Shown: positions 1 to 27,647 of the stretch, in pieces
Numbering within the stretch: the first letter of the stretch is position 1
Layout of the letters: each line of letters starts with the position of its first letter
Assembly (NCBI GenBank): GCA_964016885.1
Contig: OZ024741.1
Location: forward strand, 169,446,001 to 169,510,000
Length of the DNA stretch: 64,000 nt
Source of the DNA: Eledone cirrhosa
Lineage: Eukaryota
Reading direction: 5' to 3'
Program-made: the position numbers and the translations under genes
Notes under the pieces: generated by a model
The model's database searches: none
Told to the model about the DNA's origin: nothing
Seen by the model: only the letters and a program-made list of their open reading frames with translations

Positions 1-445
1 TATGGTGGACACGTTTGAAAGGGCTGAAGACGAGCACTTACCTCTTCGGTGATGCCCTGATTAACTTTTTCAAATTTCATTTGAAAAGGAAAATCAGGGT
101 AGAGAGGGAAGTGCTCTCTTCCCAGCATTTTGTTGAAAGATGGGTGAGAGAAGCAAGTATGGCCCGAATGAATGGGCCTTCTCTGAGTATGTGTCTGTAA
201 ATTAAAGGTGGAAAACTGGGAGAGGGCACTTGCCTTGGTGGTCAGGGCCACTGTGTTCTTTTAATGGGCTTTCTCCACAAATGTCCCTCGGAAGTCTCCC
301 CCCTATTGGGGAATTTTTCTTTGTTATTTTATTTCATCCTCTGTTTTCTTTTACAGGCAGAAATGCCCATTTGTACCGTCCTGTATTGTTCTGTACTGTC
401 CTTAATGTCTACTTTATGTAAACCCTTGTGGTTAATAAAGAAAAC
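1..445 (+). mobile_element. 3' end (ORF2 C-terminus + 3' UTR) of an upstream copy of the Tx1-like non-LTR retrotransposon
   Basis: 1-200 aligns to 8729-8928 (10 substitutions counted by eye) and ends in TAA. The 3' UTR matches 8929-9190 with indels and ends GTTAATAAAGAAAAC, followed by (ATT)n and the same U1 upstream flank. Confidence 0.93.
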
Positions 446-933
446 ATTATTATTATTATTATTATTATTATCATTATTATTATAATAAAATTAACCGTGA
501 GAGACACTAAAGACACACACACAAATCTCAATTTGCATTATTCATCGATCTGCTGGAAACAACGTTGATATTTGTCTCAACTAACAGCCTCTCTCCTGGA
601 AGAAGGAAAAAACAGTGGTAAATACTTTTCTGCAAGTTTGTGATAGTAGTTAATGCTAAAAGCAAATGTTGAATTATTTCCCTTGACTAATACAAGATAG
701 TAGATTTGAAGGCGTAAGTAAAGATAGTTTAGTTGTTAAATTGATAAAGTTTGTATAAAGAAGAATAACTTTGAAAGTAAAGAGTATTGAATAAGTGTAT
801 AAATAAAATAATTTGCAAGTTGTATTGTTTTTTGTATTGTGGAATTAAATTTTCAGTAGTTGTTGATGGTATAAAGTCAGTAGATCTTTTGTAAGTATAA
901 TGTTATATGAAGAAAGTGATTATTGTATCTAGC

Positions 934-1096
934 ATACTTACCTGGCACAGGGGTTAACCATGATCCGCTAGGTGGTTCTCCCAGAGTGAGGCTCTTCCAT
1001 TGCACTGCGGTTGGGTTGACCTTTGCGATCGCCCCAAATGTGGGCGACTCGGGTGCGCTATTTCTAAGTGTGGGGTCTGCGTTCGCGCTCACCCCG
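934..1096 (+). ncRNA. RNU1: U1 spliceosomal snRNA (variant), copy 1
   Basis: Starts ATACTTACCTGG. It has the CCATGATC..GGTGG stem-loop I, the ATTGCAC U1A loop, CCCCAAATGTGGG stem-loop III and a 3' GGGGTCTGCGTTCGCGC..CCCC stem-loop IV. Length ~163 nt. Confidence 0.95.
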
Positions 1097-1103
1097 TAAA
1101 ATA

Positions 1104-1117
1104 ATCAAAAAGACAGA
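1104..1117 (+). terminator. snRNA 3'-box-like element downstream of U1 copy 1
   Basis: ATCAAAAAGACAGA ~8 nt after the U1 3' end resembles the AARRYAGA part of the metazoan snRNA 3' box; conserved in copy 2 (9862-9875). Confidence 0.55.
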
Positions 1118-2297
1118 ATTTTTACTATTATTAAATTATAATTATCTTTCTCTATTCTTTCACACAATCCACTTTACTCATTCTCTCATACAACCTAACT
1201 TTTCAGATTTATTTCTTTTACAAACTCCCTCATACAACCTTTTCCTATTCATGCAATCCTCACCTAACTCTTCTCTGCACTCTCAACTCTTGCCCACGCC
1301 GGCATATCATACACTAACACACCATTTCACCGGCTCTTGCCTACCTTTTCCACCACACATGCATCGTCCCTTCTATTTTCAATTAACAACAACTACCTTC
1401 ATTCTATTTCAATTCAGCCGCAATCACTCTTACCTTTCACACTTCTCTTCCAACATACACCCAACCGTCTGTCGTATATCTGAGTAATTAACCTCATAGA
1501 AACAACACTTAAATTTACCTCCTCTCACACATAACCTACATTATATGGAGAAAGATATCTGCCATTTTCACTCTTAGTATATCTTTCATCATACCACTGG
1601 CCAGCTAAATCATAACTTCCATCTTCCGACGGAGAAGACGCTCCTATCAGAAGAAATCATCAGGCTAGATCCAGAAACGATCTTATCTTATTTGTCGTCT
1701 AGCCTTCGGTCTCACGCCAGTTGGATTTACCCGTATTATCTCTCTAGTCATTCTTTTCTTATACATTCTAAACACACCTTCCTACTACCAGAGCGGTGAT
1801 CTTCCGATTCAGAAAATTCGCTGCTCTACCTGTAGCCACTCCCTCATCTCCAAGCTACACATCCAATCGACCAAGCTTATTCCAAACGCTTGTAAATCTA
1901 CATTTACAAATCAATACAACAAACAATTTACTTCAGCGTACACACACAGACATATATTACTAGCAAATCACTTATATATGGAACTTGTGAGCATGTGATA
2001 TCTCTAACAGGTCGCATCTTGAACTCAATCAAACAATCTAGCCTATACTAATATGGAAAGAGGACGTGCAATGATGATATGGAGTTTTAGGCTTTTCTTA
2101 AGCACAGAGATTGTTTTAGTGTCACTTGGATTTAAAATTTAATTATCTTTATTATCCACTTCTCAGTAGTGAGAACTTGATAAATATTTATTACAACAGT
2201 TAAACCAACTTCATTAAAGTATTATGTTGCTGTAGGTGTGTGTATAACATGCAACTAGATAAACTCTGATATAGTAGATAGATTCATGTGAAATATC

Positions 2298-3127
2298 TAT
2301 ATACAAGTGCACCACCATGTATTTTGGGAGTAAAAACCCAGCGTCCACATACTCCCTCCACAGCACTAATATCAAGAAGTCTTCTTGTGAACGTGACCTG
2401 GACATTGCGGTCAGCAGCGATTTGCGTTGGACGAAGCACGTCTCTAAAATTGTCAAGAGGGCCGAGGGTGTCTTAACATCACTCAGCAAGACCTTTGTCA
2501 GCCGCTCTCCTGCTATCTATTTAAGGCTGTACATGGCTATGGTGCGGCCACACTTAGAATTTGCATCACCAGTCTGGGACCCCTAGCTTGCTCAGAACAT
2601 TGACCGCCTGGAAACTGTTCAGAGACGTGCAACCAAGCGAATACCCTCCATCAGGCATCTACCGTACTCTGAGCGCCTTGCTTCCCTGGGCATGGATACA
2701 TTGAATCTCCGACGCCTGGCAACTGACTTGGTAAACACCGACAAAATTGTTAACCATCTTGCCAACAACAACCCTGAGTAGCTTTTTGATTTCCATGTGT
2801 CTAACACACGTGGGCATGCCCACAAAGTCTGAAAACAGTACAGTTCCCATGACTTTCGGAAACATTTTTTCACGCTCAGAGTTGCTGAAGAATGTAACAA
2901 ACTACCTGCATCGGTTGTTAGCTGTCAAGACACTGCATCCTTTAAGGCCTCCATGCTTCCCGAGATTCGCTAACACTACACCTAATGTCGCCCCCTCCCT
3001 CCCTCATACACACATGTATATCATGACTCATACACTATTCACTTCTCTGACTTTTGGTTTTTATTCTATGTACTATACATGCACCTTTGACGAGTTGTAG
3101 TGCACCTGAGCACTTTACACAATAATT

Positions 3128-3159
<32 letters not shown>
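2298..3159 (+). mobile_element. 5'-truncated, degenerate CR1/L2-group LINE 3' fragment with (ATT)n tail, part of the U1 repeat unit
   Basis: Translates to a CR1-type post-RT region (ERDLDIAVSSDLRW..LYMAMVRPHLEFASPVWDP*..LETVQRRATK..YSERL..TRGH..FRKHFF) with in-frame stops. Ends in (ATT)10 at 3130-3159. Confidence 0.85.
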
Positions 3160-3374
3160 GAATGCCATGGTTGACGGAGGCTCGGCTCTGTAAGGTATAG
3201 TAATTTTTAACCGTTAAAACAATTGTAAATTGTTTAAAACTTGAACCAAATTGTTGATAAAGACACCCTCCTCCTCGTGAGAGGGGTCTTTCTGTCCGTT
3301 ATTTGGCCCTTCGGGGTTAAATAACCAGTTATTGGGGTTTTGTACCCAAAATTTCATTTTAAACAAAAAACAAC

Positions 3375-5473
3375 ATGGCTACGAAAAAGAAATTTCATAC
3401 GTCATTCCCACTCATTCCGTCTTCTTCTTCCTCAATCATCACTACAGCAGAGAGAAGATTGTCTCTCTCCCTCCCTTCTTTAAATGTGTCTCTCTCCCTC
3501 CCTTCTCTTTCGCAAGTGACGAAAGAAAAGAAAAGTCTCGTGCAAAGCGTGCAAGGTTTCTCCACGACGACGACGACAGCGACGAAACAGGTGTGCGGGA
3601 AATACGAAAACCCAGTTCATTCGTCTGACGTCAGGAATAATAGCAGTAGCAGCCGTAATAACAACAGCAACAGTGACAATGAAAACAACAGTAGCAGCCG
3701 CAACAGCATCACCAGCAGCATAAACAACAACAGCATTAGCAGCAGCAACACCAACAACAACCACAGCAACAGCGGCGGAGGCAGTAGTCGTAGTACCTGC
3801 AGCAACAACAAAAGTACCAGCAGCTCTGACGACAACAACAACAGCAGAGAAAAACCAATCTCATTTGCAGGTATTGCGAAAAACTTGGAAACAATCCTCA
3901 TAACAAATGAGGAATTAGAGGAAGCGAAGAAGATGGTGACAAAGAACGGACACAGAGCAATCTGCAAGGCAGCGAAAAATTTTTTCGAAACCCAAGAGCA
4001 CTGTACGGTCACGTACCGTACAGTAAGTACAAAATCCCGTAGGGTGGAAAGAGCCACAGAGGCCCAAATACAAAAAGCCTTGGGGTCTGTGTGGCAGAGG
4101 AAAACGCACATCACCCGAGGCAAAAAAATACGCCACCGTAGACGTACTTTTTGCCACACCCCAGGAGGCAAAGGCCCAATCAGTAGTGACCCTAAGGAGC
4201 GAGGAAATGGTGTTGGTGCCCTCCTACTGCGGGCAAAAAATTGTGAGGGTCAAACTGACCCACGTCCCCCCCGGAATGACCCCTTCTTGGCTGGCCGCGT
4301 CTGTCCTCGTCGGAATCGAGGACAAAACAACTGTACTGCAAGTACAGAAAAAAGTAAGAGAAGATTGGGTCGGCTCCTCCATTGAGATGCTAATCCAAAC
4401 CAACCAGGAGTGCATCGAAGCTATCCCGGATGTGATAGACTTCGATAACGGCACTCAACTGCCCATAAGTGTTGAGGGCAAACGCCCGAAATGCTTTCGC
4501 TGTGGATCGAAGACTCACCTCAGGGCCTTCTGCAACGAGAAGACCCTGAGAAAGGAGAAACCCCCCCCTCCTTCCGAATCCGGCTCCACGGCTACCAGCA
4601 ACAGGACAAGCGGCAACCAGGAACGATAGGTCCGTGGCACCCATACCCACTCCACGGAAATCAAAGACAGCAGCAGCAGTGGAAATATTAACAACAACAA
4701 CAGCAATACCAAATGCAGCTGCAACAGAGACTCCAGTGCAAACATCACCAACAACAACAAGTGAAAGAGTGGAGATGGTACCCCTCCCCGACCTTACAGA
4801 ATCAGACATGGAGTGTGAGGTGGGAGAGGGATGGCAAAAGGTCGCAAGAAGGCACAAACGCAGAAGCAGCGCATCGTCGCCTTTGAAAAGGGAGGAAAGA
4901 AATGAGAAAAGGGTAAAGTCTACTGCAAAGAGACCCACAGCAGCAACACCACCAACACCATCACCACCCACACCAGCACCACCATCACCACCGGCGACAA
5001 CCCCACCGCCAACAACACCTTCAACACCACCACCACAAGCACCAACATCGCAAACACAACAACAAAACACACACACCCAGCAACAACGACAAGAAAATAG
5101 CAGAACCACACCCCACCCCCAGAAAAACAAATGCACGGCAATAAACACACACAACAAGAAACTAATGACTTACATAATTGAACACACAGACATTTCACAA
5201 CAGGACTACATAATACCAGCACCAATCAAAACGCCAACTAACATAAGACTGCTAAAAATAGCACAGAAACAATACACAAACATTAAAACGAAATTCCCCA
5301 ACGCAGTTGGTGATTTCAGGGACCTAGGAGGAACCATCAATCGAAGAGTATATTCAGACATTCTCTTAGAAGAGCCGACGACCAGCCGAAGGGAGGATTC
5401 AACGGTCCCTTCACCAGACGATCAAGTGAAAAGGGATGTAAAAACCATCCCTCCTCTACCAAAAGTACGGTAA
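3375..5473 (+). CDS. ORF1 gag-like nucleic-acid-binding protein with CCHC zinc knuckle, split by two +1 frameshifts (~698 aa if repaired)
   Basis: ATG at 3375. The frame changes at the A7 run (~4122-4128) into a frame containing CFRCGSKTHLRAFC (CX2CX4HX4C). It changes again at the C8 run (4561-4568) into a Pro/Thr-rich frame ending TAA at 5473. Confidence 0.78.
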
Positions 5474-5508
5474 GTGGTCTTTCCCATCTTTTCCACTCTA
5501 TTTTAAAC

Positions 5509-8500
5509 ATGACCTCACTCAGAATAGGCAGCATAAATGCGCGTGGCTTGGGGTCGTCATGGAAGCAGGGTCACCTGCTCAACGACCTCAGGTCACTAAA
5601 CATAGATGTAGTGGCCATCAGCGAGACCAGAATCTCTGAAGCACGGGCCTTCGCACCGATCTTCGGCGGCTACGATGTGTACGCATCTCCCAGCCGTCCT
5701 GGATCGGGTGGAGGAGTTGCTGTGCTTTTTCGGAGAGGTTTGGATCTCGCCATACGGGCCATCTTCCTGGACCCAGAGGGTAAGCTGGTGGTGCTGGACG
5801 TGACCAGCGGAGACGGGCAAGCTTTCAGGCTAGTGGCCGTCTATGCCCCGACAGGAGCAGGGCGGCCTGATTTCTTCAGGCGTCTGGAGACCTTTCTTGG
5901 AACGTCCCGCTCTTTAGTGTTAGTGGGCGACTGGAACGGGATCTTAGATGCACGCTGGGACTGTGTGGGATTAGCGGATAGGGGTGGAGGGTGCAAGAGC
6001 CTCACCAACCTGCTCAGGCGTTTTGAACTGTCTGACAGGTACCGATTGGATTTCCCGAATGTGCCAATGTGGACTTGGACAAACCGCATAGGGTCATCCA
6101 GATCATATCTAGATAGAGTATTTTGTAGGGAAATAGATAGGTCTAGCATAGGCTGTCCACAATTCAAGATAGTCAGCTACACGGACCACAAATTCGTGAC
6201 CTGTGTGCTTGACTTAGATAGGCTTCATAGACGAGGACCCGGCTACTGGAAGCTAAACGCGTCCTTACCAGCGCGCAAGGCCTACAGAGACCGGATTAGC
6301 GAACTAGTTAAGCGGGCGTTGACGGGGGCCATCGTCAACAACAAGTGGTGGTTTGCTCTGAAAAGAGCGATTAGAATAGAATCGATTAGGTTTAGTAAGG
6401 CTTTAGCAATAGAGAAAAATAGAGCAGAGGGAGAACTAGTTAGAAAATTAGACGAGGCGCTTAGCAAAGGCATTGCGACCGACGTGCTTGCGGCGAAATT
6501 GGCCCTTGACCAATTCTTCAATGCAAAGCACGAAGGCTGCGTTGTCAGAGCTAGGGTGCGTGCTCTCAGACACGAGGGGACGAAAGCCGTTCAATGGGCC
6601 CGAGTGGCGGAGGCGCGTCGTGGCAACAAAGCCACGATCCGGTCTTTGGTGGACCACGACGGGCGCATGCTACCCGATCCCGGGCAAATGTGTGAAGCTT
6701 TTCAGCGACACTTCGCTCAGCTGTTCGGGGGCAGCGGGGGGCCGGGTAGAGGGATGGACTTTAGTGTCTACCTCGACGGACTGCCGCGGCTCTCGGCCAC
6801 TGAGGCGAAGTGTTGCGAAAAGCCGATAACAGCCGCTGAAGTAAGGGAGGCAATGACTGGCTGCACAAGGGGTAAATCGCCTGGTTTGGATGGTCTGCCC
6901 TATGAACTTTACGTACAGATGCCAGACTTGTTCGGAGGCCTCTTAGCGGACGTCTACTGCAACTGGCAACAGAACGGGAGAATTCCCAGTTCTGTGAGCC
7001 GAGGAGCGGTGGCACTGCTGAGAAAGGATCCGAACAAGGGGGATAACATAGACAATTTCCGGCCCATAACTCTGCTAAACACAGAGTTTAAGATTTTGGC
7101 CAAGGTGCTAGCAAAGAGGTTGGCGCTTGTCGTTGGTGGTCTAGTGGGAGAGGCGCAGACATGCGCCATTCCCGACAGATCCATCCACGACAACCTCCAC
7201 CTCATGCGATACATCGTAGAGAGGGTAGCTAGGGAACCTGGCACGGGTGGGTCCTTGATCAATTTAGATCAGTCGAAAGCTTTCGATAGGGTCGACCATC
7301 GTTACCTAGCGGCAGTCCTGAGGGCGGCTGGCTTTGGGCCCGTCTTCAGAGGCTGGATCGCTGCCATGCACAGCGACATCTGCTCTGTGGTGAGAGTGAA
7401 CGGTCACCTGTCGGAACCGTTCAACATCATGCGCTCGGTCCGCCAAGGATGTCCCCTCTCGTCCCTCTTGTACGTATTGACTCTCGAGCCATTACTGCAC
7501 AAACTGGAGACGTTGAGGGGAGTCCCGCGCGAACTAGGATGCGGAAGATCCGTGTCAGCATATGCCGACGATGTCACCGTAGTGGTGTCGAACGCCAAAC
7601 ACATCGAGGCGATCGGCACTACACTAAGAGAATACGAAGCGGTGACAGGAGCAATGATCAACCAGGAAAAGTCAGTGGGCCTGCAGCTCGGCACCTGGAG
7701 AGGCAGGTCCATGCCGTCCAACAGCGTCGTCGGGCGCTGGACGGACGGACCGGTTAAATTGCTAGGGGTCTGGTTCGGTCCGGACCTCCAGACGGACAAA
7801 AACTGGGACGAGGTGACGAGCAGGGTGGCTTCTCTCACCCAGAAATGGGCGGAGAGGAAGCTATCCCTGAAAGGTCGAGCGGAGGTGGCTAACGCGTACA
7901 TCGCGTCTGTCATCTGCTACCGCCTAACCGTCGTACCTTGTCCTAAGCCTCGCCTGACTGCGCTGGAGCGTTTGCTCTTTCGCTTTTTGTGGAAGGGACG
8001 TGCTCCGATGGTCAGGCGGTCCATCTGTTGTCAACACCCGCTACGTGGAGGGCTGGGCATGCCGTGGCTGATGATGCGCAGGCACGCGCTCAGGCTACGA
8101 CATCTCCACCTCTTCCTCGACGGTGATCAGGTGTGGTCGCCGTTTGCTAGACGCGTTTTTCCCCAGCTCGTTTCCTTGACGGAGCTGCAGTCCTGGGTCA
8201 AGCGAAGACCGAGAGGGAGCGCCTGGAGACTGGAATGTCTTCAGGCGCTCACAGCCCTCGACCAATCGGGCAATGTGATCGGTGGAAACTCCACCTCGGC
8301 GTTCTATAGAGGATTAGTGGAGGGGAAGAGCGACGACGTACTTGGGGAAACTCTAGGCGTCGACGAAAATCAACTAGCCAATCTCTTCGGAAGAACTTTC
8401 GGGCCAGGGCCTATGGACAACTTCCAGAAATCTCTGGCCTGGCAGTGCTACCGAGGAGCCTTGCCAGTTCGGGATAAACTCTACAGGCATGGAGGTGCCG

Positions 8501-8928
8501 TCAGCCGGGCATGTCCGAGATGCGCGCAGGGCGACGAAACCGTCCTGCACGCACTCGTCCAGTGTCCGAAAATTGCTGACTTGTGGGTTTATGTCGAACA
8601 CCTGCTGTCGCGTTTAGGACGGATCCAGCTATCATCTGAGTCTATCGTGAGGATTGCCCCGCCCTCCTCCTTTAGCCGGGAAGGGCAGGCAGTTTTTATC
8701 TGTCTGGTGGCCATGGCGAAAGAGATAGTATGGTGGACACGTTTGAAAGGGCTGAAGACGAGCACTTACCTCTTCGGTGATGCTCTGATTGACTTTTTCA
8801 AATTTCATTTGAAAAGGAAAATCAGAGTAGAGAAGGAAGTGCTCTCTTCCCAGCATTTTGTTGAAAGATGGGTGAGAGAAGCAAGAATGGCCCGAGTGAA
8901 TGGGCCGACTCTGAGTATATATCTGTAA
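5509..8928 (+). CDS. ORF2: APE endonuclease + reverse transcriptase + C-terminal CCHC zinc finger (1139 aa, intact)
   Basis: APE motifs SINARGL, AISET, VAVYAP, LVGDWN, SYLDRV, YTDH. Linker GPGYWKLN. RT motifs KSPGLDGL, NFRPITLLN, LDQSKAFDRV, RQGCPLS, YADD. C-terminal CPRC..ETVLHALVQC. Confidence 0.97.
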   Translation: MTSLRIGSINARGLGSSWKQGHLLNDLRSLNIDVVAISETRISEARAFAPIFGGYDVYASPSRPGSGGGVAVLFRRGLDLAIRAIFLDPEGKLVVLDVTSGDGQAFRLVAVYAPTGAGRPDFFRRLETFLGTSRSLVLVGDWNGILDARWDCVGLADRGGGCKSLTNLLRRFELSDRYRLDFPNVPMWTWTNRIGSSRSYLDRVFCREIDRSSIGCPQFKIVSYTDHKFVTCVLDLDRLHRRGPGYWKLNASLPARKAYRDRISELVKRALTGAIVNNKWWFALKRAIRIESIRFSKALAIEKNRAEGELVRKLDEALSKGIATDVLAAKLALDQFFNAKHEGCVVRARVRALRHEGTKAVQWARVAEARRGNKATIRSLVDHDGRMLPDPGQMCEAFQRHFAQLFGGSGGPGRGMDFSVYLDGLPRLSATEAKCCEKPITAAEVREAMTGCTRGKSPGLDGLPYELYVQMPDLFGGLLADVYCNWQQNGRIPSSVSRGAVALLRKDPNKGDNIDNFRPITLLNTEFKILAKVLAKRLALVVGGLVGEAQTCAIPDRSIHDNLHLMRYIVERVAREPGTGGSLINLDQSKAFDRVDHRYLAAVLRAAGFGPVFRGWIAAMHSDICSVVRVNGHLSEPFNIMRSVRQGCPLSSLLYVLTLEPLLHKLETLRGVPRELGCGRSVSAYADDVTVVVSNAKHIEAIGTTLREYEAVTGAMINQEKSVGLQLGTWRGRSMPSNSVVGRWTDGPVKLLGVWFGPDLQTDKNWDEVTSRVASLTQKWAERKLSLKGRAEVANAYIASVICYRLTVVPCPKPRLTALERLLFRFLWKGRAPMVRRSICCQHPLRGGLGMPWLMMRRHALRLRHLHLFLDGDQVWSPFARRVFPQLVSLTELQSWVKRRPRGSAWRLECLQALTALDQSGNVIGGNSTSAFYRGLVEGKSDDVLGETLGVDENQLANLFGRTFGPGPMDNFQKSLAWQCYRGALPVRDKLYRHGGAVSRACPRCAQGDETVLHALVQCPKIADLWVYVEHLLSRLGRIQLSSESIVRIAPPSSFSREGQAVFICLVAMAKEIVWWTRLKGLKTSTYLFGDALIDFFKFHLKRKIRVEKEVLSSQHFVERWVREARMARVNGPTLSIYL

Positions 8929-9188
8929 ACTAAAGGTGGAAAACTGGGAGAGGGCACTTGCCTTGGTGGTCAGGGTCATTGTGGCTTTTTACTGGGCTTT
9001 CTCCACAAATGTCCCTCCGAAGTCTCCCCCCTATTGGGGAATTTTTCATTGTTATTTTCATTGTTATTTTTGTTACATCCTCTGTTTTTGTTTTTTTACA
9101 CGCAGAAATGCCCATTTGTACCGTCCTGCATTGTCCTGCACTGTCCTTAATGTCTACTTTATGTAAACCCTTGTGGTTAATAAAGAAA

Positions 9189-9246
<58 letters not shown>

Positions 9247-9691
9247 AATTAACCGTGAGAGACACTAAAGACACACACACAAATCTCAATTTGCGTTATT
9301 CATCGATCTGCTGGAAATAACGTTGATATTTGTCTCAACTAACAGCCTCTCTCCTGGAAGAAGGAAAAAACGGTGATAAATACTTTTCTGCAAGTTTGTG
9401 TTAGTAGTTAATGCTAACACCAAATGTTGAATTATTTCCCTTGATTAATACAAGATAGTAGATTTGAAGGCGTAAGTAAAGATAGTTTAGTTGTTAAATT
9501 GATAAAGTTTGTATAAAGAAGAATAACTTTGAAAGTAAAGAGTAGTGAATAAGTGGGTAAATAAAATAATTTGCAAGTTGTATTGTTTTTTGTATTGTGG
9601 CATTAAATTTTCAGTAGTTGTTGATGGTATAAAGTCAGTAGATCTTTCGTAAGTATAATGTTATATGAAGAAAGTGATTATGGTGTCTAGC

Positions 9692-9854
9692 ATACTTACC
9701 TGGCACAGGGGTTAACCATGATCCGCTAGGTGGTTCTCCCAGAGTGAGGCTCTTCCATTGCACTGCGGTTGGGTTGACCTTTGCGATCGCCCCAAATGTG
9801 GGCGACTCGGGTGCGCTATTTCTAAGTGTGGGGTCTGCGTTCGCGCTCACCCTG
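9692..9854 (+). ncRNA. RNU1: U1 spliceosomal snRNA (variant), copy 2
   Basis: Identical to 934-1096 except ACCCTG vs ACCCCG at the 3' end; homologous flanks; offset 8758 bp. Confidence 0.95.
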
Positions 9855-10382
9855 TAAAATAATCAAAAAGACAGACTTTTTACCATTAGTAAATTATGAT
9901 TATCTTTCTCTATTCTTTCACACAATCCACTTTACCCATTCTCTCATACAACCTAACTTTTCAGATTTATTTCTTTTACAAACTCCCTCATACAACCTTT
10001 TCCTATTCATGCAATCCTCACCTAACTCTTCTCTGCACTCTCAACTCTTGCCCACGCCGGCATATCATACACTAACACACCATTTCACCGGCTCTTGCCT
10101 ACCTTTTCCACCACACATGCATCGTCCCTTCTATTTTCAATTAACAACAACTACCTTCATTCTATTTCAATTCAGCCGCAATCACTCTTACCTTTCACAC
10201 TTCTCTTCCAACATACACCCAACCGTCTATCGTATATCTGAGTAATTAACCTCATAGAAACAACACTTAAATTTACCTCCTCTCACACATAACCTACATT
10301 ATATGGAGAAAGATATCTGCCATTTTCACTCTTAGTATATCTTCCATCATACCACTGGCCAGCTAAATCATAACTTCCATCA

Positions 10383-10634
10383 TAACAAACTACCTACATC
10401 GGTTGTTAGCTGTCGAGACACTGCATCCTTTAAGGCCTCCATGCTTCCCGAGATTCGCCAACACTACACCTAATGTCGCCCCCTCCCTCCCTCATACACA
10501 CATGTATATCATGACTCATACACTATTCACTTCCCTGACATTTGTGTTTTATTCTATGTACTATGCACCTTTGACGAGTTGTAGTGCACCTGAGCACTTT
10601 ACACAATAATTTCATTATTATTATTATTATTATT
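10383..10634 (+). mobile_element. Short 3' remnant of the CR1-like LINE with (ATT)7 tail in the deleted last U1 unit
   Basis: Matches ~2895-3159; joined to spacer sequence equivalent to ~1623 by a ~1.27 kb deletion. Confidence 0.85.
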
Positions 10635-10659
10635 ATATAAATTAACCGTGAGAGACACT

Positions 10660-13600
10660 GAATTTCAGCAAGATATCTCCGTAAAATCAATAGTTGTGGC
10701 TGTGGAACCAAACCGTGTTAAACGTCAACAAAGTCGGTGAGCGTAAGTTTGTTTACATTGAACTCGTGGTGGGATCGATCTGTAATTACTGGTACATGTG
10801 CAGACACACATTGCTTGTGTGTGGTGTGATTTTCAAAAAAAACTGCCCATGCTAAATGAGGCAGCTGAAGTCCGGCGGCGAATGGTGTGCTTCGAAGAAA
10901 ACGAATCCAAAAATGACGATTAGCCGGCGGATTTACCTTTTCAATCGCGGGCCGGCCGCCCGTGGTCGGATCGATCTGTAATTACTGGTACATGTGCAGA
11001 CACTCATTGGCTATGTGTGGCGTGAATTTCAGCAAGATATCTCCGTAAAATCAATAGTTGTGGCTGTGGAACCAAACCGTGTTAAACGTCAACAAAGTCC
11101 GCCGGCGAATGGTGTGCTTCGAAGAAAACGAATCCAAAAATGACGATTAGCCGGCGGATTTACCTTTTCAATCGCGGGCCGGCCGCCCGTGGTCGGATCG
11201 ATCTGTAATTACTGGTACATGTGCAGACACTCATTGGCTATGTGTGGCGTGAATTTCAGCAAGATATCTCCGTAAAATCAATAGTTGTGGCTGTGGAACC
11301 AAACCGTGTTAAACGTCAACAAAGTCCGCCGGCGAATGGTGTGCTTCGAAGAAAACGAATCCAAAAATGACGATTAGCCGGCGGATTTACCTTTTCAATC
11401 GCGGGCCGGCCGCCCGTGGTCGGATCGATCTGTAATTACTGGTACATGTGCAGACACTCATTGGCTATGTGTGGCGTGAATTTCAGCAAGATATCTCCGT
11501 AAAATCAATAGTTGTGGCTGTGGAACCAAACGGTGTTAAACGTCAACAAAGTCCGCCGGCGAATGGTGTGCTTCGAAGAAAACGAATCCAAAAATGACGA
11601 TTAGCCGGCGGATTTACCTTTTCAATCGCGGGCCGGCCGCCCGTGGTCGGATCGATCTGTAATTACTGGTACATGTGCAGACACTCATTGGCTATGTGTG
11701 GCGTGAATTTCAGCAAGATATCTCCGTAAAATCAATAGTTGTGGCTGTGGAACCAAACCGTGTTAAACGTCAACAAAGTCCGCCGGCGAATGGTGTGCTT
11801 CGAAGAAAACGAATCCAAAAATGACGATTAGCCGGCGGATTTACCTTTTCAATCGCGGGCCGGCCGCCCGTGGTCGGATCGATCTGTAATTACTGGTACA
11901 TGTGCAGACACTCATTGGCTATGTGTGGCGTGAATTTCAGCAAGATATCTCCGTAAAATCAATAGTTGTGGCTGTGGAACCAAACGGTGTTAAACGTCAA
12001 CAAAGTCCGCCGGCGAATGGTGTGCTTCGAAGAAAACGAATCCAAAAATGACGATTAGCCGGCGGATTTACCTTTTCAATCGCGGGCCGGCCGCCCGTGG
12101 TCGGATCGATCTGTAATTACTGGTACTTGTGCAGACACTCATTGGCTATGTGTGGCGTGAATTTCAGCAAGATATCTCCGTAAAATCAATAGTTGTGGCT
12201 GTGGAACCAAACCGTGTTAAACGTCAACAAAGTCCGCCCGCGAATGGTGTGCTTCGAAGAAAACGAATCCAAAAATGACGATTAGCCGGCGGATTTACCT
12301 TTTCAATCGCGGGCCGGCCGCCCGTGGTCGGATCGATCTGTAATTACTGGTACATGTGCAGACACTCATTGGCTATGTGTGGCGTGAATTTCAGCAAGAT
12401 ATCTCCGTAAAATCAATAGTTGTGGCTGTGGAACCAAACCGTGTTAAACGTCAACAAAGTCCGCCGGCGAATGGTGTGCTTCGAAGAAAACGAATCCAAA
12501 AATGACGATTAGCCGGCGGATTTACCTTTTCAATCGCGGGCCGGCCGCCCGTGGTCGGATCGATCTGTAATTACTGGTACATGTGCAGACACTCATTGGC
12601 TATGTGTGGCGTGAATTTCAGCAAGATATCTCCGTAAAATCAATAGTTGTGGCTGTGGAACCAAACCGTGTTAAACGTCAACAAAGTCCGCCGGCGAATG
12701 GTGTGCTTCGAAGAAAACGAATCCAAAAATGACGATTAGCCGGCGGATTTACCTTTTCAATCGCGGGCCGGCCGCCCGTGGTCGGATCGATCTGTAATTA
12801 CTGGTACATGTGCAGACACTCATTGGCTATGTGTGGCGTGAATTTCAGCAAGATATCTCCGTAAAATCAATAGTTGTGGCTGTGGAACCAAACCGTGTTA
12901 AACGTCAACAAAGTCCGCCGGCGAATGGTGTGCTTCGAAGAAAACGAATCCAAAAATGACGATTAGCCGGCGGATTTACCTTTTCAATCGCGGGCCGGCC
13001 GCCCGTGGTCGGATCGATCTGTAATTACTGGTACATGTGCAGACACTCATTGGCTATGTGTGGCGTGAATTTCAGCAAGATATCTCCGTAAAATCAATAG
13101 TTGTGGCTGTGGAACCAAACCGTGTTAAACGTCAACAAAGTCCGCCGGCGAATGGTGTGCTTCGAAGAAAACGAATCCAAAAATGACGATTAGCCGGCGG
13201 ATTTACCTTTTCAATCGCGGGCCGGCCGCCCGTGGTCGGATCGATCTGTAATTACTGGTACATGTGCAGACACTCATTGGCTATGTGTGGCGTGAATTTC
13301 AGCAAGATATCTCCGTAAAATCAATAGTTGTGGCTGTGGAACCAAACGGTGTTAAACGTCAACAAAGTCCGCCGGCGAATGGTGTGCTTCGAAGAAAACG
13401 AATCCAAAAATGACGATTAGCCGGCGGATTTACCTTTTCAATCGCGGGCCGGCCGCCCGTGGTCGGATCGATCTGTAATTACTGGTACTTGTGCAGACAC
13501 TCATTGGCTATGTGTGGCGTGAATTTCAGCAAGATATCTCCGTAAAATCAATAGTTGTGGCTGTGGAACCAAACCGTGTTAAACGTCAACAAAGTCCGCC

Positions 13601-16600
13601 CGCGAATGGTGTGCTTCGAAGAAAACGAATCCAAAAATGACGATTAGCCGGCGGATTTACCTTTTCAATCGCGGGCCGGCCGCCCGTGGTCGGATCGATC
13701 TGTAATTACTGGTACATGTGCAGACACTCATTGGCTATGTGTGGCGTGAATTTCAGCAAGATATCTCCGTAAAATCAATAGTTGTGGCTGTGGAACCAAA
13801 CGGTGTTAAACGTCAACAAAGTCCGCCGGCGAATGGTGTGCTTCGAAGAAAACGAATCCAAAAATGACGATTAGCCGGCGGATTTACCTTTTCAATCGCG
13901 GGCCGGCCGCCCGTGGTCGGATCGATCTGTAATTACTGGTACATGTGCAGACACTCATTGGCTATGTGAGGCGTGAATTTCAGCAAGATATCTCCGTAAA
14001 ATCAATAGTTATGGCTGTGGAACCAAACAGTGTTAAACGTCAACAAAGTCCGCCGGCGAATGGTGTGCTTCGAAGAAAACGAATCCAAAAATGACGATTA
14101 GCCGGCGGATTTACCTTTTCAATCACGGGCCGGCCGCCCGTGGTCGGATCGATCTGTAATTACTGGTACATGTGCAGACACTCATTGGCTATGTGTGGCG
14201 TGAATTTCAGCAAGATATCTCCGTAAAATCAATAGTTGTGGCTGTGGAACCAAACCGTGTTAAACGTCAACAAAGTCCGCCGGCGAATGGTGTGCTTCGA
14301 AGAAAACGAATCCAAAAATGACGATTAGCCGGCGGATTTACCTTTTCAATCGCGGGCCGGCCGCCCGTGGTCGGATCGATCTGTAATTACTGGTACATGT
14401 GCAGACACTCATTGGCTATGTGTGGCGTGAATTTCAGCAAGATATCTCCGTAAAATCAATAGTTGTGGCTGTGGAACCAAACCGTGTTAAACGTCAACAA
14501 AGTCCGCCCGCGAATGGTGTGCTTCGAAGAAAACGAATCCAAAAATGACGATTAGCCGGCGGATTTACCTTTTCAATCGCGGGCCGGCCGCCCGTGGTCG
14601 GATCGATCTGTAATTACTGGTACATGTGCAGACACTCATTGGCTATGTGTGGCGTGAATTTCAGCAAGATATCTCCGTAAAATCAATAGTTGTGGCTGTG
14701 GAACCAAACCGTGTTAAACGTCAACAAAGTCCGCCCGCGAATGGTGTGCTTCGAAGAAAACGAATCCAAAAATGACGATTAGCCGGCGGATTTACCTTTT
14801 CAATCGCGGGCCGGCCGCCCGTGGTCGGATCGATCTGTAATTACTGGTACATGTGCAGACACTCATTGGCTATGTGTGGCGTGAATTTCAGCAAGATATC
14901 TCCGTAAAATCAATAGTTGTGGCTGTGGAACCAAACCGTGTTAAACGTCAACAAAGTCCGCCCGCGAATGGTGTGCTTCGAAGAAAACGAATCCAAAAAT
15001 GACGATTAGCCGGCGGATTTACCTTTTCAATCGCGGGCCGGCCGCCCGTGGTCGGATCGATCTGTAATTACTGGTACATGTGCAGACACTCATTGGCTAT
15101 GTGTGGCGTGAATTTCAGCAAGATATCTCCGTAAAATCAATAGTTGTGGCTGTGGAACCAAACGGTGTTAAACGTCAACAAAGTCCGCCGGCGAATGGTG
15201 TGCTTCGAAGAAAACGAATCCAAAAATGACGATTAGCCGGCGGATTTACCTTTTCAATCGCGGGCCGGCCGCCCGTGGTCGGATCGATCTGTAATTACTT
15301 GTACATGTGCAGACACTCATTGGCTATGTGTGGCGTGAATTTCAGCAAGATATCTCCGTAAAATCAATAGTTGTGGCTGTGGAACCAAACCGTGTTAAAC
15401 GTCAACAAAGTCCGCCCGCGAATGGTGTGCTTCGAAGAAAACGAATCCAAAAATGACGATTAGCCGGCGGATTTACCTTTTCAATCGCGGGCCGGCCGCC
15501 CGTGGTCGGATCGATCTGTAATTACTGGTACATGTGCAGACACTCATTGGCTATGTGTGGCGTGAATTTCAGCAAGATATCTCCGTAAAATCAATAGTTG
15601 TGGCTGTGGAACCAAACCGTGTTAAACGTCAACAAAGTCCGCCCGCGAATGGTGTGCTTCGAAGAAAACGAATCCAAAAATGACGATTAGCCGGCGGATT
15701 TACCTTTTCAATCGCGGGCCGGCCGCCCGTGGTCGGATCGATCTGTAATTACTGGTACATGTGCAGACACTCATTGGCTATGTGAGGCGTGAATTTCAGC
15801 AAGATATCTCCGTAAAATCAATAGTTGTGGCTGTGGAACCAAACCGTGTTAAACGTCAACAAAGTCCGCCGGCGAATGGTGTGCTTCGAAGAAAACGAAT
15901 CCAAAAATGACGATTAGCCGGCGGATTTACCTTTTCAATCGCGGGCCGGCCGCCCGTGGTCGGATCGATCTGTAATTACTGGTACATGTGCAGACACTCA
16001 TTGGCTATGTGTGGCGTGAATTTCAGCAAGATATCTCCGTAAAATCAATAGTTGTGGCTGTGGAACCAAACCGTGTTAAACGTCAACAAAGTCCGCCCGC
16101 GAATGGTGTGCTTCGAAGAAAACGAATCCAAAAATGACGATTAGCCGGCGGATTTACCTTTTCAATCGCGGGCCGGCCGCCCGTGGTCGGATCGATCTGT
16201 AATTACTGGTACATGTGCAGACACTCATTGGCTATGTGTGGCGTGAATTTCAGCAAGATATCTCCGTAAAATCAATAGTTGTGGCTGTGGAACCAAACCG
16301 TGTTAAACGTCAACAAAGTCCGCCCGCGAATGGTGTGCTTCGAAGAAAACGAATCCAAAAATGACGATTAGCCGGCGGATTTACCTTTTCAATCGCGGGC
16401 CGGCCGCCCGTGGTCGGATCGATCTGTAATTACTTGTACATGTGCAGACACTCATTGGCTATGTGTGGCGTGAATTTCAGCAAGATATCTCCGTAAAATC
16501 AATAGTTGTGGCTGTGGAACCAAACGGTGTTAAACGTCAACAAAGTCCGCCCGCGAATGGTGTGCTTCGAAGAAAACGAATCCAAAAATGACGATTAGCC

Positions 16601-19600
16601 GGCGGATTTACCTTTTCAATCGCGGGCCGGCCGCCCGTGGTCGGATCGATCTGTAATTACTGGTACATGTGCAGACACTCATTGGCTATGTGTGGCGTGA
16701 ATTTCAGCAAGATATCTCCGTAAAATCAATAGTTGTGGCTGTGGAACCAAACCGTGTTAAACGTCAACAAAGTCCGCCGGCGAATGGTGTGCTTCAAGAA
16801 AACGAATCCAAAAATGTAGATTAGCCGGCGGATTTACCTTTTCAATCGCGGGCCGGCCGCCCGTGGTCGGATCGATCTGTAATTACTGGTACATGTGCAG
16901 ACACTCATTGGCTATGTGTGGCGTGAATTTCAGCAAGATATCTCCGTAAAATCAATAGTTGTGGCTGTGGAACCAAACGGTGTTAAACGTCAACAAAGTC
17001 CGCCGGCGAATGGTGTGCTTCGAAGAAAACGAATCCAAAAATGACGATTAGCCGGCGGATTTACCTTTTCAATCGCGGGCCGGCCGCCCGTGGTCGGATC
17101 GATCTGTAATTACTGGTACATGTGCAGACACTCATTGGCTATGTGTGGCGTGAATTTCAGCAAGATATCTCCGTAAAATCAATAGTTGTGGCTGTGGAAC
17201 CAAACCGTGTTAAACGTCAACAAAGTCCGCCCGCGAATGGTGTGCTTCGAAGAAAACGAATCCAAAAATGACGATTAGCCGGCGGATTTACCTTTTCAAT
17301 CGCGGGCCGGCCGCCCGTGGTCGGATCGATCTGTAATTACTGGTACATGTGCAGACACTCATTGGCTATGTGTGGCGTGAATTTCAGCAAGATATCTCCG
17401 TAAAATCAATAGTTGTGGCTGTGGAACCAAACCGTGTTAAACGTCAACAAAGTCCGCCCGCGAATGGTGTGCTTCGAAGAAAACGAATCCAAAAATGACG
17501 ATTAGCCGGCGGATTTACCTTTTCAATCGCGGGCCGGCCGCCCGTGGCGGATCGATCTGTAATTACTGGTACATGTGCAGACACTCATTGGCTATGTGTG
17601 GCGTGAATTTCAGCAAGATATCTCCGTAAAATCAATAGTTGTGGCTGTGGAACCAAACCGTGTTAAACGTCAACAAAGTCCGCCGGCGAATGGTGTGCTT
17701 CGAAGAAAACGAATCCAAAATTGACGATTAGCCGGCGGATTTACCTTTTCAATCGCGGGCCGGCCGCCCGTGGTCGGATCGATCTGTAATTACTGGTACA
17801 TGTGCAGACACTCATTGGCTATGTGTGGCGTGAATTTCAGCAAGATATCTCCGTAAAATCAATAGTTGTGGCTGTGGAACCAAACCGTGTTAAACGTCAA
17901 CAAAGTCCGCCCGGCGAATGGTGTGCTTCGAAGAAAACGAATCCAAAAATGACGATTAGCCGGCGGATTTACCTTTTCAATCGCGGGCCGGCCGCCCGTG
18001 GTCGGATCGATCTGTAATTACTGGTACATGTGCAGACACTCATTGGCTATGTGTGGCGTGAATTTCAGCAAGATATCTCCGTAAAATCAATAGTTGTGGC
18101 TGTGGAACCAAACCGTGTTAAACGTCAACAAAGTCCGCCGCGAATGGTGTGCTTCGAAGAAAACGAATCCAAAAATGACGATTAGCCGGCGGATTTACCT
18201 TTTCAATCGCGGGCCGGCCGCCCGTGGTCGGATCGATCTGTAATTACTGGTACATGTGCAGACACTCATTGGCTATGTGTGGCGTGAATTTCAGCAAGAT
18301 ATCTCCGTAAAATCAATAGTTGTGGCTGTGGAACCAAACCGTGTTAAACGTCAACAAAGTCCGCCCGGCGAATGGTGTGCTTCGAAGAAAACGAATCCAA
18401 AAATGACGATTAGCCGGCGGATTTACCTTTTCAATCGCGGGCCGGCCGCCCGTGGTCGGATCGATCTGTAATTACTGGTACATGTGCAGACACTCATTGG
18501 CTATGTGTGGCGTGAATTTCAGCAAGATATCTCCGTAAAATCAATAGTTGTGGCTGTGGAACCAAACCGTGTTAAACGTCAACAAAGTCCGCCCGCGAAT
18601 GGTGTGCTTCGAAGAAAACGAATCCAAAAATGACGATTAGCCGGCGGATTTACCTTTTCAATCGCGGGCCGGCCGCCCGTGGTCGGATCGATCTGTAATT
18701 ACTGGTACATGTGCAGACACTCATTGGCTATGTGTGGCGTGAATTTCAGCAAGATATCTCCGTAAAATCAATAGTTGTGGCTGTGGAACCAAACCGTGTT
18801 AAACGTCAACAAAGTCCGCCCGCGAATGGTGTGCTTCGAAGAAAACGAATCCAAAATGACGATTAGCCGGCGGATTTACCTTTTCAATCGCGGGCCGGCC
18901 GCCCGTGGTCGGATCGATCTGTAATTACTGGTACATGTGCAGACACTCATTGGCTATGTGTGGCGTGAATTTCAGCAAGATATCTCCGTAAAATCAATAG
19001 TTGTGGCTGTGGAACCAAACCGGTGTTAAACGTCAACAAAGTCCGCCGGCGAATGGTGTGCTTCGAAGAAAACGAATCCAAAAATGACGATTAGCCGGCG
19101 GATTTACCTTTTCAATCGCGGGCCGGCCGCCGTGGTCGGATCGATCTGTAATTACTGGTACATGTGCAGACACTCATTGGCTATGTGTGGCGTGAATTTC
19201 AGCAAGATATCTCCGTAAAATCAATAGTTGTGGCTGTGGAACCAAACCGTGTTAAACGTCAACAAAGTCCGCCCGCGAATGGTGTGCTTCGAAGAAAACG
19301 AATCCAAAAATGACGATTAGCCGGCGGATTTACCTTTTCAATCGCGGGCCGGCCGCCCGTGGTCGGATCGATCTGTAATTACTGGTACATGTGCAGACAC
19401 TCATTGGCTATGTGTGGCGTGAATTTCAGCAAGATATCTCCGTAAAATCAATAGTTGTGGCTGTGGAACCAAACCGTGTTAAACGTCAACAAAGTCCGCC
19501 CGCGAATGGTGTGCTTCGAAGAAAACGAATCCAAAAATGACGATTAGCCGGCGGATTTACCTTTTCAATCGCGGGCCGGCCGCCCGTGGTCGGATCGATC

Positions 19601-22600
19601 TGTAATTACTGGTACATGTGCAGACACTCATTGGCTATGTGTGGCGTGAATTTCAGCAAGATATCTCCGTAAAATCAATAGTTGTGGCTGTGGAACCAAA
19701 CCGTGTTAAACGTCAACAAAGTCCGCCCGGCGAATGGTGTGCTTCGAAGAAAACGAATCCAAAAATGACGATTAGCCGGCGGATTTACCTTTTCAATCGC
19801 GGGCCGGCCGCCCGTGGTCGGATCGATCTGTAATTACTTGTACATGTGCAGACACTCATTGGCTATGTGTGGCGTGAATTTCAGCAAGATATCTCCGTAA
19901 AATCAATAGTTGTGGCTGTGGAACCAAACCGTGTTAAACGTCAACAAAGTCCGCCCGCGAATGGTGTGCTTCGAAGAAAACGAATCCAAAAATGACGATT
20001 AGCGGCGGATTTACCTTTTCAATCGCGGGCCGGCCGCCCGTGGTCGGATCGATCTGTAATTACTGGTACATGTGCAGACACTCATTGGCTATGTGTGGCG
20101 TGAATTTCAGCAAGATATCTCCGTAAAATCAATAGTTGTGGCTGTGGAACCAAACCGTGTTAAACGTCAACAAAGTCCGCCCGCGAATGGTGTGCTTCGA
20201 AGAAAACGAATCCAAAAATGACGATTAGCCGGCGGATTTACCTTTTCAATCGCGGGCCGGCCGCCCGTGGTCGGATCGATCTGTAATTACTGGTACATGT
20301 GCAGACACTCATTGGCTATGTGTGGCGTGAATTTCAGCAAGATATCTCCGTAAAATCAATAGTTGTGGCTGTGGAACCAAACCGTGTTAAACGTCAACAA
20401 AGTCCGCCGGCGAATGGTGTGCTTCGAAGAAAACGAATCCAAAAATGACGATTAGCCGGCGGATTTACCTTTTCAATCGCGGGCCGGCCGCCCGTGGTCG
20501 GATCGATCTGTAATTACTGGTACATGTGCAGACACTCATTGGCTATGTGTGGCGTGAATTTCAGCAAGATATCTCCGTAAAATCAATAGTTGTGGCTGTG
20601 GAACCAAACCGTGTTAAACGTCAACAAAGTCCGCCGCGAATGGTGTGCTTCGAAGAAAACGAATCCAAAAATGACGATTAGCCGGCGGATTTACCTTTTC
20701 AATCGCGGGCCGGCCGCCCGTGGTCGGATCGATCTGTAATTACTGGTACATGTGCAGACACTCATTGGCTATGTGTGGCGTGAATTTCAGCAAGATATCT
20801 CCGTAAAATCAATAGTTGTGGCTGTGGAACCAAACCGTGTTAAACGTCAACAAAGTCCGCCGGCGAATGGTGTGCTTCGAAGAAAACGAATCCAAAAAAT
20901 GACGATTAGCCGGCGGATTTACCTTTTCAATCGCGGGCCGGCCGCCCGTGGTCGGATCGATCTGTAATTACTGGTACATGTGCAGACACTCATTGGCTAT
21001 GTGTGGCGTGAATTTCAGCAAGATATCTCCGTAAAATCAATAGTTGTGGCTGTGGAACCAAACCGTGTTAAACGTCAACAAAGTCCGCCGGCGAATGGTG
21101 TGCTTCGAAGAAAACGAATCCAAAAATGACGATTAGCCGGCGGATTTACCTTTTCAATCGCGGGCGGCCGCCCGTGGTCGGATCGATCTGTAATTACTGG
21201 TACATGTGCAGACACTCATTGGCTATGTGTGGCGTGAATTTCAGCAAGATATCTCCGTAAAATCAATAGTTGTGGCTGTGGAACCAAACCGTGTTAAACG
21301 TCAACAAAGTCCGCCCGCGAATGGTGTGCTTCGAAGAAAACGAATCCAAAAATGACGATTAGCCGGCGGATTTACCTTTTCAATCGCGGGCCGGCCGCCC
21401 GTGGTCGGATCGATCTGTAATTACTTGTACATGTGCAGACACTCATTGGCTATGTGTGGCGTGAATTTCAGCAAGATATCTCCGTAAAATCAATAGTTGT
21501 GGCTGTGGAACCAAACCGTGTTAAACGTCAACAAAGTCCGCCGGCGAATGGTGTGCTTCGAAGAAAACGAATCCAAAAATGACGATTAGCCGGCGGATTT
21601 ACCTTTTCAATCGCGGGCCGGCCGCCCGTGGTCGGATCGATCTGTAATTACTGGTACATGTGCAGACACTCATTGGCTATGTGTGGCGTGAATTTCAGCA
21701 AGATATCTCCGTAAAATCAATAGTTGTGGCTGTGGAACCAAACCGTGTTAAACGTCAAACAAAGTCCGCCGGCGAATGGTGTGCTTCGAAGAAAACGAAT
21801 CCAAAAATGACGATTAGCCGGCGGATTTACCTTTTCAATCGCGGGCCGGCCGCCCGTGGTCGGATCGATCTGTAATTACTGGTACATGTGCAGACACTCA
21901 TTGGCTATGTGTGGCGTGAATTTCAGCAAGATATCTCCGTAAAATCAATAGTTGTGGCTGTGGAACCAAACCGTGTTAAACGTCAACAAAGTCCGCCGGC
22001 GAATGGTGTGGCTTCGAAGAAAACGAATCCAAAAATGACGATTAGCCGGCGGATTTACCTTTTCAATCGCGGGCCGGCCGCCCGTGGTCGGATCGATCTG
22101 TAATTACTGGTACATGTGCAGACACTCATTGGCTATGTGTGGCGTGAATTTCAGCAAGATATCTCCGTAAAATCAATAGTTGTGGCTGTGGAACCAAACC
22201 GTGTTAAACGTCAACAAAGTCCGCCCGCGAATGGTGTGCTTCGAAGAAAACGAATCCAAAAATGACGATTAGCCGGCGGATTTACCTTTTCAATCGCGGG
22301 CCGGCCGCCCGTGGTCGGATCGATCTGTAATTACTGGTACATGTGCAGACACTCATTGCTATGTGTGGCGTGAATTTCAGCAAGATATCTCCGTAAAATC
22401 AATAGTTGTGGCTGTGGAACCAAACGGTGTTAAACGTCAACAAAGTCCGCCGGCGAATGGTGTGCTTCGAAGAAAACGAATCCAAAAATGACGATTAGCC
22501 GGCGGATTTACCTTTTCAATCGCGGGCCGGCCGCCCGTGGTCGGATCGATCTGTAATTACTGGTACATGTGCAGACACTCATTGGCTATGTGTGGCGTGA

Positions 22601-25600: not shown

Positions 25601-25843
25601 GGCTGTGGAACCAAACGTGTTAAACGTCAACAAAGTCCGCCCGCGAATGGTGTGCTTCGAAGAAAACGAATCCCAAAAATGACGATTAGCCGGCGGAATT
25701 TACCTTTTCAATCGCGGGGCCGGCCGCCCGTGGTCGGATCGATCTGTAATTCCTTGTACATGTGCAGACACTCATTTGGCTATGTGTGGCGTGAATTTCA
25801 GCAAGAATCTCCGTAAAATCAATAGTTGTGGCTGTGGAACCAA
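10660..25843. repeat. 227-bp satellite DNA array (~67 monomers, runs into the gap)
   Basis: Motif GAATTTCAGCAAGATATCTCC recurs every 227 bp (e.g. 11251 and 13521 are 10 units apart). Monomers are nearly identical; the first one is divergent. Confidence 0.98.
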
Positions 25844-26043
25844 NNNNNNNNNNNNNNNNNNNNNNNNNNNNNNNNNNNNNNNNNNNNNNNNNNNNNNNNN
25901 NNNNNNNNNNNNNNNNNNNNNNNNNNNNNNNNNNNNNNNNNNNNNNNNNNNNNNNNNNNNNNNNNNNNNNNNNNNNNNNNNNNNNNNNNNNNNNNNNNNN
26001 NNNNNNNNNNNNNNNNNNNNNNNNNNNNNNNNNNNNNNNNNNN
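25844..26043. other. Assembly gap (200 N)
   Basis: Run of N. Confidence 1.
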
Positions 26044-26992
26044 TATATTTATACATATATAATATATATATAATATACATATATATATATATATACCATA
26101 TATATATACATATATATATATATACACATATATATATATATATACACATATATATATATATACATATACATATATATACATATATATATATATATACATA
26201 TATATACACATATATATATATACATATATATACACATATATATATATATACATATATATACACATATATATATATATACATATATATACACATATATATA
26301 TATATACATATATATACACATATATATATATACATATATATACACATATATATATATATACATATATATACACATATATATATATATACATATATATACA
26401 CATATATATATATATACATATATATACACATATATATATATATACATATATATACACATATATATATATATACATATATATACACATATATATATATATA
26501 CATATATATACACATATATATATATATACATATATATACACATATATATATATACATATATATACACATAATATATATACATATAATATATATACATATA
26601 TATACATATATATATATACATATATATATATACATATATATACATATATATATATACACATATATATATATATACATATATATATATACATATATATACA
26701 TATATATATACATATATATATATACTATATATACATATATATATATACATATATATATATACACATATATATATATATACATATATATATATACATATAT
26801 ATACATATATATATACATATATATATATACATATATATACATACATATATATACATATATATATATACATATATATACATATATATATATATATACATAT
26901 ACATATACATATATATACATATACATATATATATATATACATATATATATATACATACATATATATACATATATACATATATATATATATAC

Positions 26993-27038
<46 letters not shown>

Positions 27039-27466
27039 ACATATACATATATATATATACATATATACATATATATATATACATATATATATATACATAT
27101 ATATATATACATATATATATATACATATATACATATATATATATACACATATATATATACATATATATATATACATATATATATATACATATATATATAT
27201 ACATATATATATATACATATATACATATATATATATACATATATATATATACACATATATATATATACACATATATATATATATATACACATATATATAT
27301 ATATACACATATATATATATATACACATATATATATATATACACATATATATATATACACATATATATATATATACACATATATATATATATACATATAT
27401 ATATACATATATATATACATATATATATATATACACATATATATATACATATATATATATATACAC

Positions 27467-27497
<31 letters not shown>

Positions 27498-27500
27498 CAC

Positions 27501-27563
<63 letters not shown>

Positions 27564-27616: not shown

Positions 27617-27647
<31 letters not shown>

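Follow-up and report, generated by a model that had tools for sequence, protein, structure and literature searches.

Two copies of a Tx1-like non-LTR retrotransposon, here called A and B, occupy adjacent junctions of a short tandem U1 array that fills the first 10.7 kb of the window (the whole 64,000-nucleotide stretch of Eledone cirrhosa DNA that was analysed) on the + strand, and a third junction of the same array is empty. Copy B has an open ORF2 and a broken ORF1, and the units differ from one another unevenly along their length. We put the chance that A and B were inserted separately at about even. Separate retrotransposition was also the proposal of an earlier sequence-only reading and is still the leading one, although the divergence argument first made for it proved weak and its support now comes from evidence outside that reading, namely the empty junction, the decay of copy B and the variability of the amino-acid columns at which the copies differ. 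Under this reading we infer the order of events, the separateness of the insertions, targeting through (ATT)n or its context and conversion in the spacer.

The U1 array and its Tx1-like element

The 5′ part of the array (Table 1) runs from the 3′ end of copy A through (ATT)n, flank a, U1 a and spacer a with an old LINE remnant to (ATT)10; the 3′ part continues with copy B, (ATT)17.7, flank b, U1 b, spacer b, the remnant tail and (ATT)7.7 and stops in a partial third flank. The element is inserted not in U1 itself but in (ATT)n, which lies about 450 bp upstream of the gene. Two of the three junctions are filled on the 3′ side; the third has no element, and its flank fragment (10637–10659, 23 bases) is identical to the start of flank b up to the point where a satellite cuts it off. 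Because this junction is empty, tandem repetition of the U1 unit probably predates the arrival of the Tx1-like element, barring loss of an element by recombination between (ATT)n tracts. Within the window, no ATT or AAT tracts of at least four units were present beyond the four of the array, and no further copies of the element were found.

Table 1. Features of the U1 array and of the retrotransposon copies in it (window positions).
Feature	Position	Strand	Remarks
Copy A (Tx1-like), final 65 ORF2 codons with stop	1..200	+	open frame 3-200; remainder outside window
Copy A 3′ UTR	201..444	+	AATAAA at 434
(ATT)n tract 3′ of copy A	446..483	+	single ATC interruption
U1 upstream flank a	488..933	+	15/446 vs flank b
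U1 snRNA gene a	934..1097	+	Rfam RF00003, 124.8 bits
Downstream spacer a, common to unit b	1098..1623	+	7/526
Segment of about 1270 bp private to unit a (deletion in unit b)	1624..2893	+	
Old LINE 3′ remnant	2330..3129	+	three in-frame stops in translation; start approximate
(ATT)10 tract, remnant tail and copy B 5′ junction	3130..3159	+	
Copy B, apparently full-length Tx1-like non-LTR retrotransposon	3160..9190	+	
Copy B ORF1	3375..5473	+	three frames; CX2CX4HX4C knuckle
Copy B ORF2, 1139 aa, open	5509..8928	+	APE endonuclease, RT (YADD), zf-RVT
(ATT)17.7 tract 3′ of copy B	9191..9243	+	
U1 upstream flank b	9244..9691	+	
U1 snRNA gene b	9692..9855	+	Rfam 123.1 bits
Spacer b, up to deletion junction	9856..10381	+	
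LINE-remnant tail, unit b	10383..10613	+	7/231 vs 2895-3129
Empty junction c	10614..10659	+	(ATT)7.7 fused directly to first 23 bases of U1 flank; satellite after

Pfam searches of ORF2 matched PF03372 at residues 22–210, PF00078 at 511–754 and PF13966 (zf-RVT) at 974–1026, and the NARG, SETR, GDWN, TDH and YADD motifs are present. An N-terminal APE domain followed by RT, a C-terminal Cys-His motif and an upstream ORF1 with a nucleic-acid-binding motif are all features by which the L1/Tx1 group is recognized, so that copy B would be expected to work like an element of that group. Membership of the Tx1 clade in the strict sense is likely from the sequence: ORF2 matches Xenopus Tx1 ORF2 with E=1e-92 and human L1 ORF2p with E=1.6e-52 (the latter in a much smaller database), and a 30-row tree built without an L1 outgroup places B inside a supported group of 13 rows, the fork that links this group to Xenopus Tx1 being open. 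Over the C-terminal overlap of ORF2, 58 of 65 residues are identical between A and B. The nearest named relative of ORF2 is Argonauta hians protein P0002 (69%); the best match among proteins reached 82% over half of the query and none had 90% amino-acid identity or more. When relatives with flanking DNA were sought in genome contigs, two pattern scans yielded 27 and 563 matches, none of which was confirmed. One further protein, P0124, is 70% identical to ORF2 and is labelled as a Herbaspirillum MAG; this is probably animal DNA in a bacterial bin.

The frame of ORF1 breaks near an A7 run (4122–4128) and a C8 run (4561–4568), with no in-frame stop across the three pieces tested, and among its 202 relatives P0148 and P0178 match across all three frames; a Pfam search of ORF1 gave no match. 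Runs of at least six equal bases number six in ORF1 and one in ORF2, and the frameshifts may be true slippage or consensus error. The two together weigh against a pristine or very young copy B, unless they are errors of the assembly or consensus. No RNA structure was detected in the 3′ UTR (z −0.67 and 0.07; the folds differ between the copies). The older LINE remnant in the spacer we take from its motifs to be CR1/Jockey-like; a Pfam search gave no match for it and its Atlas matches were mostly to unnamed clusters.

Both U1 genes are full-length Rfam matches (cutoff 69.5 bits) and differ from each other by one base. In an alignment of copy a the 5′ splice-site-pairing end and loop II are intact. 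Loop I, the site bound by U1-70K, mismatches the Rfam consensus at 4 of its 10 positions in both genes, and both also carry changes in the Sm-site region, a departure from the canonical form. By their sequence the two may represent a variant U1 class or homogenized pseudogenes. Both are followed by a 3′-box-like motif, and an octamer at 531–538, 400 bp upstream of U1 a and with one base changed in flank b, is presumably the snRNA distal element.

Beyond the array the window holds several other features. The satellite that interrupts the third flank 23 bases in has a unit of 227 bp, spans 10660–25843 (about 66 copies at 98% identity; across 63 units there are 56 substitutions and 20 small gaps) and ends at a 200-N gap (25844–26043). 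It is followed at 26044–30473 by a 4.4-kb low-complexity array rich in TA, which switches strand internally and whose long ORFs are repeat artefacts. A SOCS5-like ORF of 503 aa with an SH2 domain and a SOCS box lies at 35352–36863 (−) and is 85% identical to its counterpart in Octopus sinensis, which marks the host as an octopod. Decayed RT-bearing LINE fragments of another family are found at 31456–32695 (−) and about 59890–61330 (+), with 71% mutual identity, and near-perfect palindromes at 52602–52863 (97%) and 54105–54552 (98%), the second of which is MITE-like and in parts matches 28781–29141.

Divergence between units and decay of copy B

Positions 1–1623 were aligned globally with 8729–10381 and segments were compared by two-sided Fisher tests. 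The overlap of the two element copies carries 25 substitutions in 444 bp (5.6%, CI 3.7–8.2), made up of 10/200 at the end of ORF2 and 15/244, with three indel events (17 bases), in the 3′ UTR. The upstream flank differs at 3.4% of positions with no indels, the U1 gene at 1/164 and the LINE-remnant tail at 3.0% with one 4-bp indel. The counts made by eye in the sequence-only reading for the end of ORF2, the flank, U1 and the spacer were reproduced exactly, and the additional 3′ UTR substitutions and indels that it described are present. Its claim that the element is more diverged than its flanks held against the spacer (P=0.0002) and the pooled non-genic flank (29/1203, P=0.003) but not against the adjacent upstream flank (P=0.11); the remnant tail gave P=0.18 and upstream flank plus remnant tail (22/677) P=0.067. 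The excess is not explained by CpG decay: none of the 25 element changes is a CpG-context transition, against three in the upstream flank.

The spacer is itself uneven, with 5 changes in the 81 bp beside U1 and then 2 in the 445 bp of 1179–1623. In a permutation scan, a 445-bp window this poor in changes had P=0.005 without U1 and 0.017 with it, and a three-segment heterogeneity chi-square gave P=0.095. The tract at 1179–1623 is a probable conversion tract. Leaving it out, the flanks stand at 27/758 and differ from the element with P=0.11, the boundary having been chosen after seeing the data. A single duplication would give one age to everything left of the crossover and separate insertions would give one age to all flanks, so that both need local homogenization; once conversion is admitted, the divergence of element versus flank tells little. 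The premise of the sequence-only reading, that a single duplicated insertion should be as diverged as its flanks, is undercut by such patchy conversion and by the result for the nearest flank. That reading had also named conversion restricted to the flanks as an outcome that would tell against it, and this is what we find in part, the probable tract being confined to the spacer. The near-identical tract abuts the 1270-bp deletion in unit b. At the deletion junction (10368–10386) 8 bases from just upstream are repeated, resembling the scar that templated end-joining might leave.

A second estimate of age comes from the decay of copy B. If the copies were split by duplication, the element divergence implies about 2.8% decay per branch, at which the simulated chance of an ORF2 with no stop in its 1139 codons is 0.03 (0.13 at 1.7%). 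Copy B departs at 6 of 179 ultraconserved codons, and two relatives do so at 4/177 and 9/182; one of the six departures is common to A and relatives and was dropped, leaving five, in half of the runs. Stops and ultraconserved codons together put the decay of copy B at about 0.9–1.2% (upper limits 2.1–2.6%). This fits the split of upstream flank plus remnant (P 0.15–0.34) but not the element split (P 0.008–0.036, or 0.02–0.075 with adjacent changes merged); against the coding overlap alone P was 0.04–0.17. Crude Bayes factors for separate sources were 1.4–76 with the flanks ignored and 4–52 with the near-identical tract removed, under uniform priors of our own choosing and with the two ORF1 frameshifts ignored. 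Pooled-flank Bayes factors of 45–344 were set aside because the flanks look uneven. From these results we lean moderately towards element lineages that are older than the stay of copy B at the site.

One insertion or two

If the copies were inserted separately, a tandem unit of flank, U1, spacer, old LINE remnant and (ATT)n would have come first, and a Tx1-like APE retrotransposon would have entered (ATT)n at two of its junctions by separate target-primed reverse-transcription events, from source copies already a few percent apart, leaving the third junction empty. Later patchy repair would have homogenized part of the spacer and deleted the 1270 bp in unit b. By established non-LTR biology, the endonuclease might prefer (ATT)n, or an RNA ending in (AUU)n might pair with it; any target-site duplication would be unreadable inside the repeat, and (ATT)n may in part be the element's own tail. 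As to the earlier claim of two insertions into one site, both copies do lie in the (ATT)n tract of the unit, and their independence is supported in part. A family that seeks (ATT)n in general would be expected to strike adjacent units rarely, and duplication is favoured a priori unless the site is one that the family prefers, as is often the case for Tx1 families.

Clearly less probable, but a real contender, is a single insertion whose filled unit was duplicated by unequal crossover and then decayed neutrally, with U1 and spacer partly homogenized by selection or conversion and the element excess due to sampling noise and a slippage-prone UTR. Duplication of filled units should be the default in a small tandem array, the confidence interval of the element overlaps the values for flank and remnant tail, the near-identical tract makes homogenization of the flanks plausible, and the element changes are clustered in the way expected of multi-base events (6 in 20 bp, P=0.04). 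The coding overlap bears on the same point. Its 10 changes comprise 7 nonsynonymous and 3 synonymous, and a neutral simulation expects 7.0–7.3 nonsynonymous (P for seven or fewer 0.55–0.64). The sequence-only reading had looked to dN/dS, a value near 1 being taken as evidence against separate insertions; over the 200-bp overlap the ratio by count (pN/pS) is 0.64, indistinguishable from 1, which goes part of the way to that outcome. As a discriminator it was set aside as uninformative. Polarization with the 17 of 27 relatives that cover the stretch assigned the derived state to B at 2 of the 7 sites and to A at 3 (2 unclear), a roughly symmetric split, and two residues, one of them at a near-invariant valine, are common to A and B but do not occur in close relatives. 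The nearest-flank result, the neutral-like changes, the split derived states and the shared private residues all count against separate insertions, as do the two ORF1 frameshifts of copy B unless these are errors.

On the other side, the amino-acid columns with changes show more variation across relatives than expected (P 0.011–0.026 in four homologue sets), a signal that rests on the 5 of 7 changes lying within the last 14 codons. Both residues are seen in relatives at 4 of the 7 sites (P 0.012–0.038), or at 1 of 7 with the five closest relatives (P=0.29); a BLOSUM test of the changes gave P=0.07 and two further statistics on their placement P 0.06–0.13. Duplication also needs about 2% decay per branch (best fit 1.9–2.0%) with no stops in about 5.5 kb of coding frames, and it is the reading disfavoured by the 1.4–76-fold factors given above. 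The bases following (ATT)n at junction b match the empty junction c and those at junction a differ from both by two small changes, which is a weak point at a microsatellite edge.

It is unlikely that a duplicated insertion was afterwards overwritten in part, through conversion by a family member or through a second insertion into regenerated (ATT)n followed by recombination. Such a history would explain selection-filtered differences without two strikes on adjacent empty units and suits the uneven divergence within the element (4 changes in 1–157 and 13 in 158–264, scan P=0.04), but there is no donor among the relatives found, all below 90% amino-acid identity, and the comparison spans 444 bp. 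It is very improbable that the tandem pair arose in assembly, from two haplotypes placed one after the other next to the 15-kb satellite and scaffold gap that directly follow the array: the small gaps in the satellite hint at consensus error, but the empty junction shows tandem structure regardless, there are no indels between units over 972 bp of flank and spacer, and 3–6% is high for alleles.

Going beyond the pair itself, we tentatively suggest that an octopod Tx1-like lineage with at least two active sublineages repeatedly inserts in (ATT)n of the variant-U1 spacer, where the end of a defunct LINE would serve as the landing site; this is possible rather than probable. Should the insertions be independent, the array would hold a site-preferring cephalopod APE retrotransposon, one copy of which is nearly intact and would allow its endonuclease to be tested on (ATT)n, and the known Tx1 targets would extend to a U1 spacer or the TAA repeat. 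Should they not be, it is an ordinary duplicated unit. In either case, where conversion is patchy across an array, the divergence of element versus flank makes a poor test, and a decay clock in an intact ORF is a better one.

Comparison with known target-specific elements

The type of event is already known. According to the available text of PMC4494074 and PMC3706591, many Tx1 families are target-specific, some of them for microsatellites or spacers, and the parts of PMC4494074 and PMC3812793 available to us list Kibi in (TC)n, Koshi in (TTC)n and crocodilian families in (TTCC)n/(TTTC)n. The element described here resembles these in being a two-ORF APE element that sits within a microsatellite, flanked by repeats at either end and adjacent to an unoccupied tract, and differs in that the repeat is (ATT)n and target specificity is putative, the rule given in the accessible part of PMC4494074 being that more than 20% of genomic copies are flanked by the same target. 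The same text gives TAA repeats as targets of Dong and not of Tx1 families. If true, the (ATT/TAA) repeat or the U1 spacer as a Tx1 target would thus be new relative to the targets listed in the available portions of PMC4494074, PMC3706591 and PMC3812793, and none of the literature matches listed (few subscription papers and no repeat databases covered) described a Tx1 element from a cephalopod in either location.

Among zebrafish elements, the sections of PMC3706591 and PMC4494074 at hand place Dewa in the tRNA-Leu spacer, Keno in U2 and Mutsu in 5S. Like these, A and B occupy one position of a tandem small-RNA gene unit, in the spacer as for Dewa; unlike them, the unit is an octopod U1 unit, insertion is at the tail of an older LINE remnant, and two filled junctions stand beside an empty one. 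Dada-U1 (PMC3706591, in the text available) shares the association with U1, but it comprises DNA transposons inserted inside U1, an unrelated mechanism. A parallel in reasoning is that of R1 and R2 in Drosophila rDNA, where, in the available part of PMC2718515, the inserts are more variable than the spacers of the array, and copies 1–7% divergent with intact ORFs in non-divergent units are read as possible separate active lineages. The question and the logic of comparing copies with spacers are the same here, whereas hundreds of units, scorable 5′ junctions and insertion in the 28S gene are features of R1/R2. Finally, the octopod L1-Tx1 families are the nearest named protein relatives of the element, and their recent activity is on record in Octopus vulgaris, for which Table 1 of PMC13282606, as far as available, gives 13 recently active L1-Tx1 families with 421 insertions; the present array comes from another octopod.
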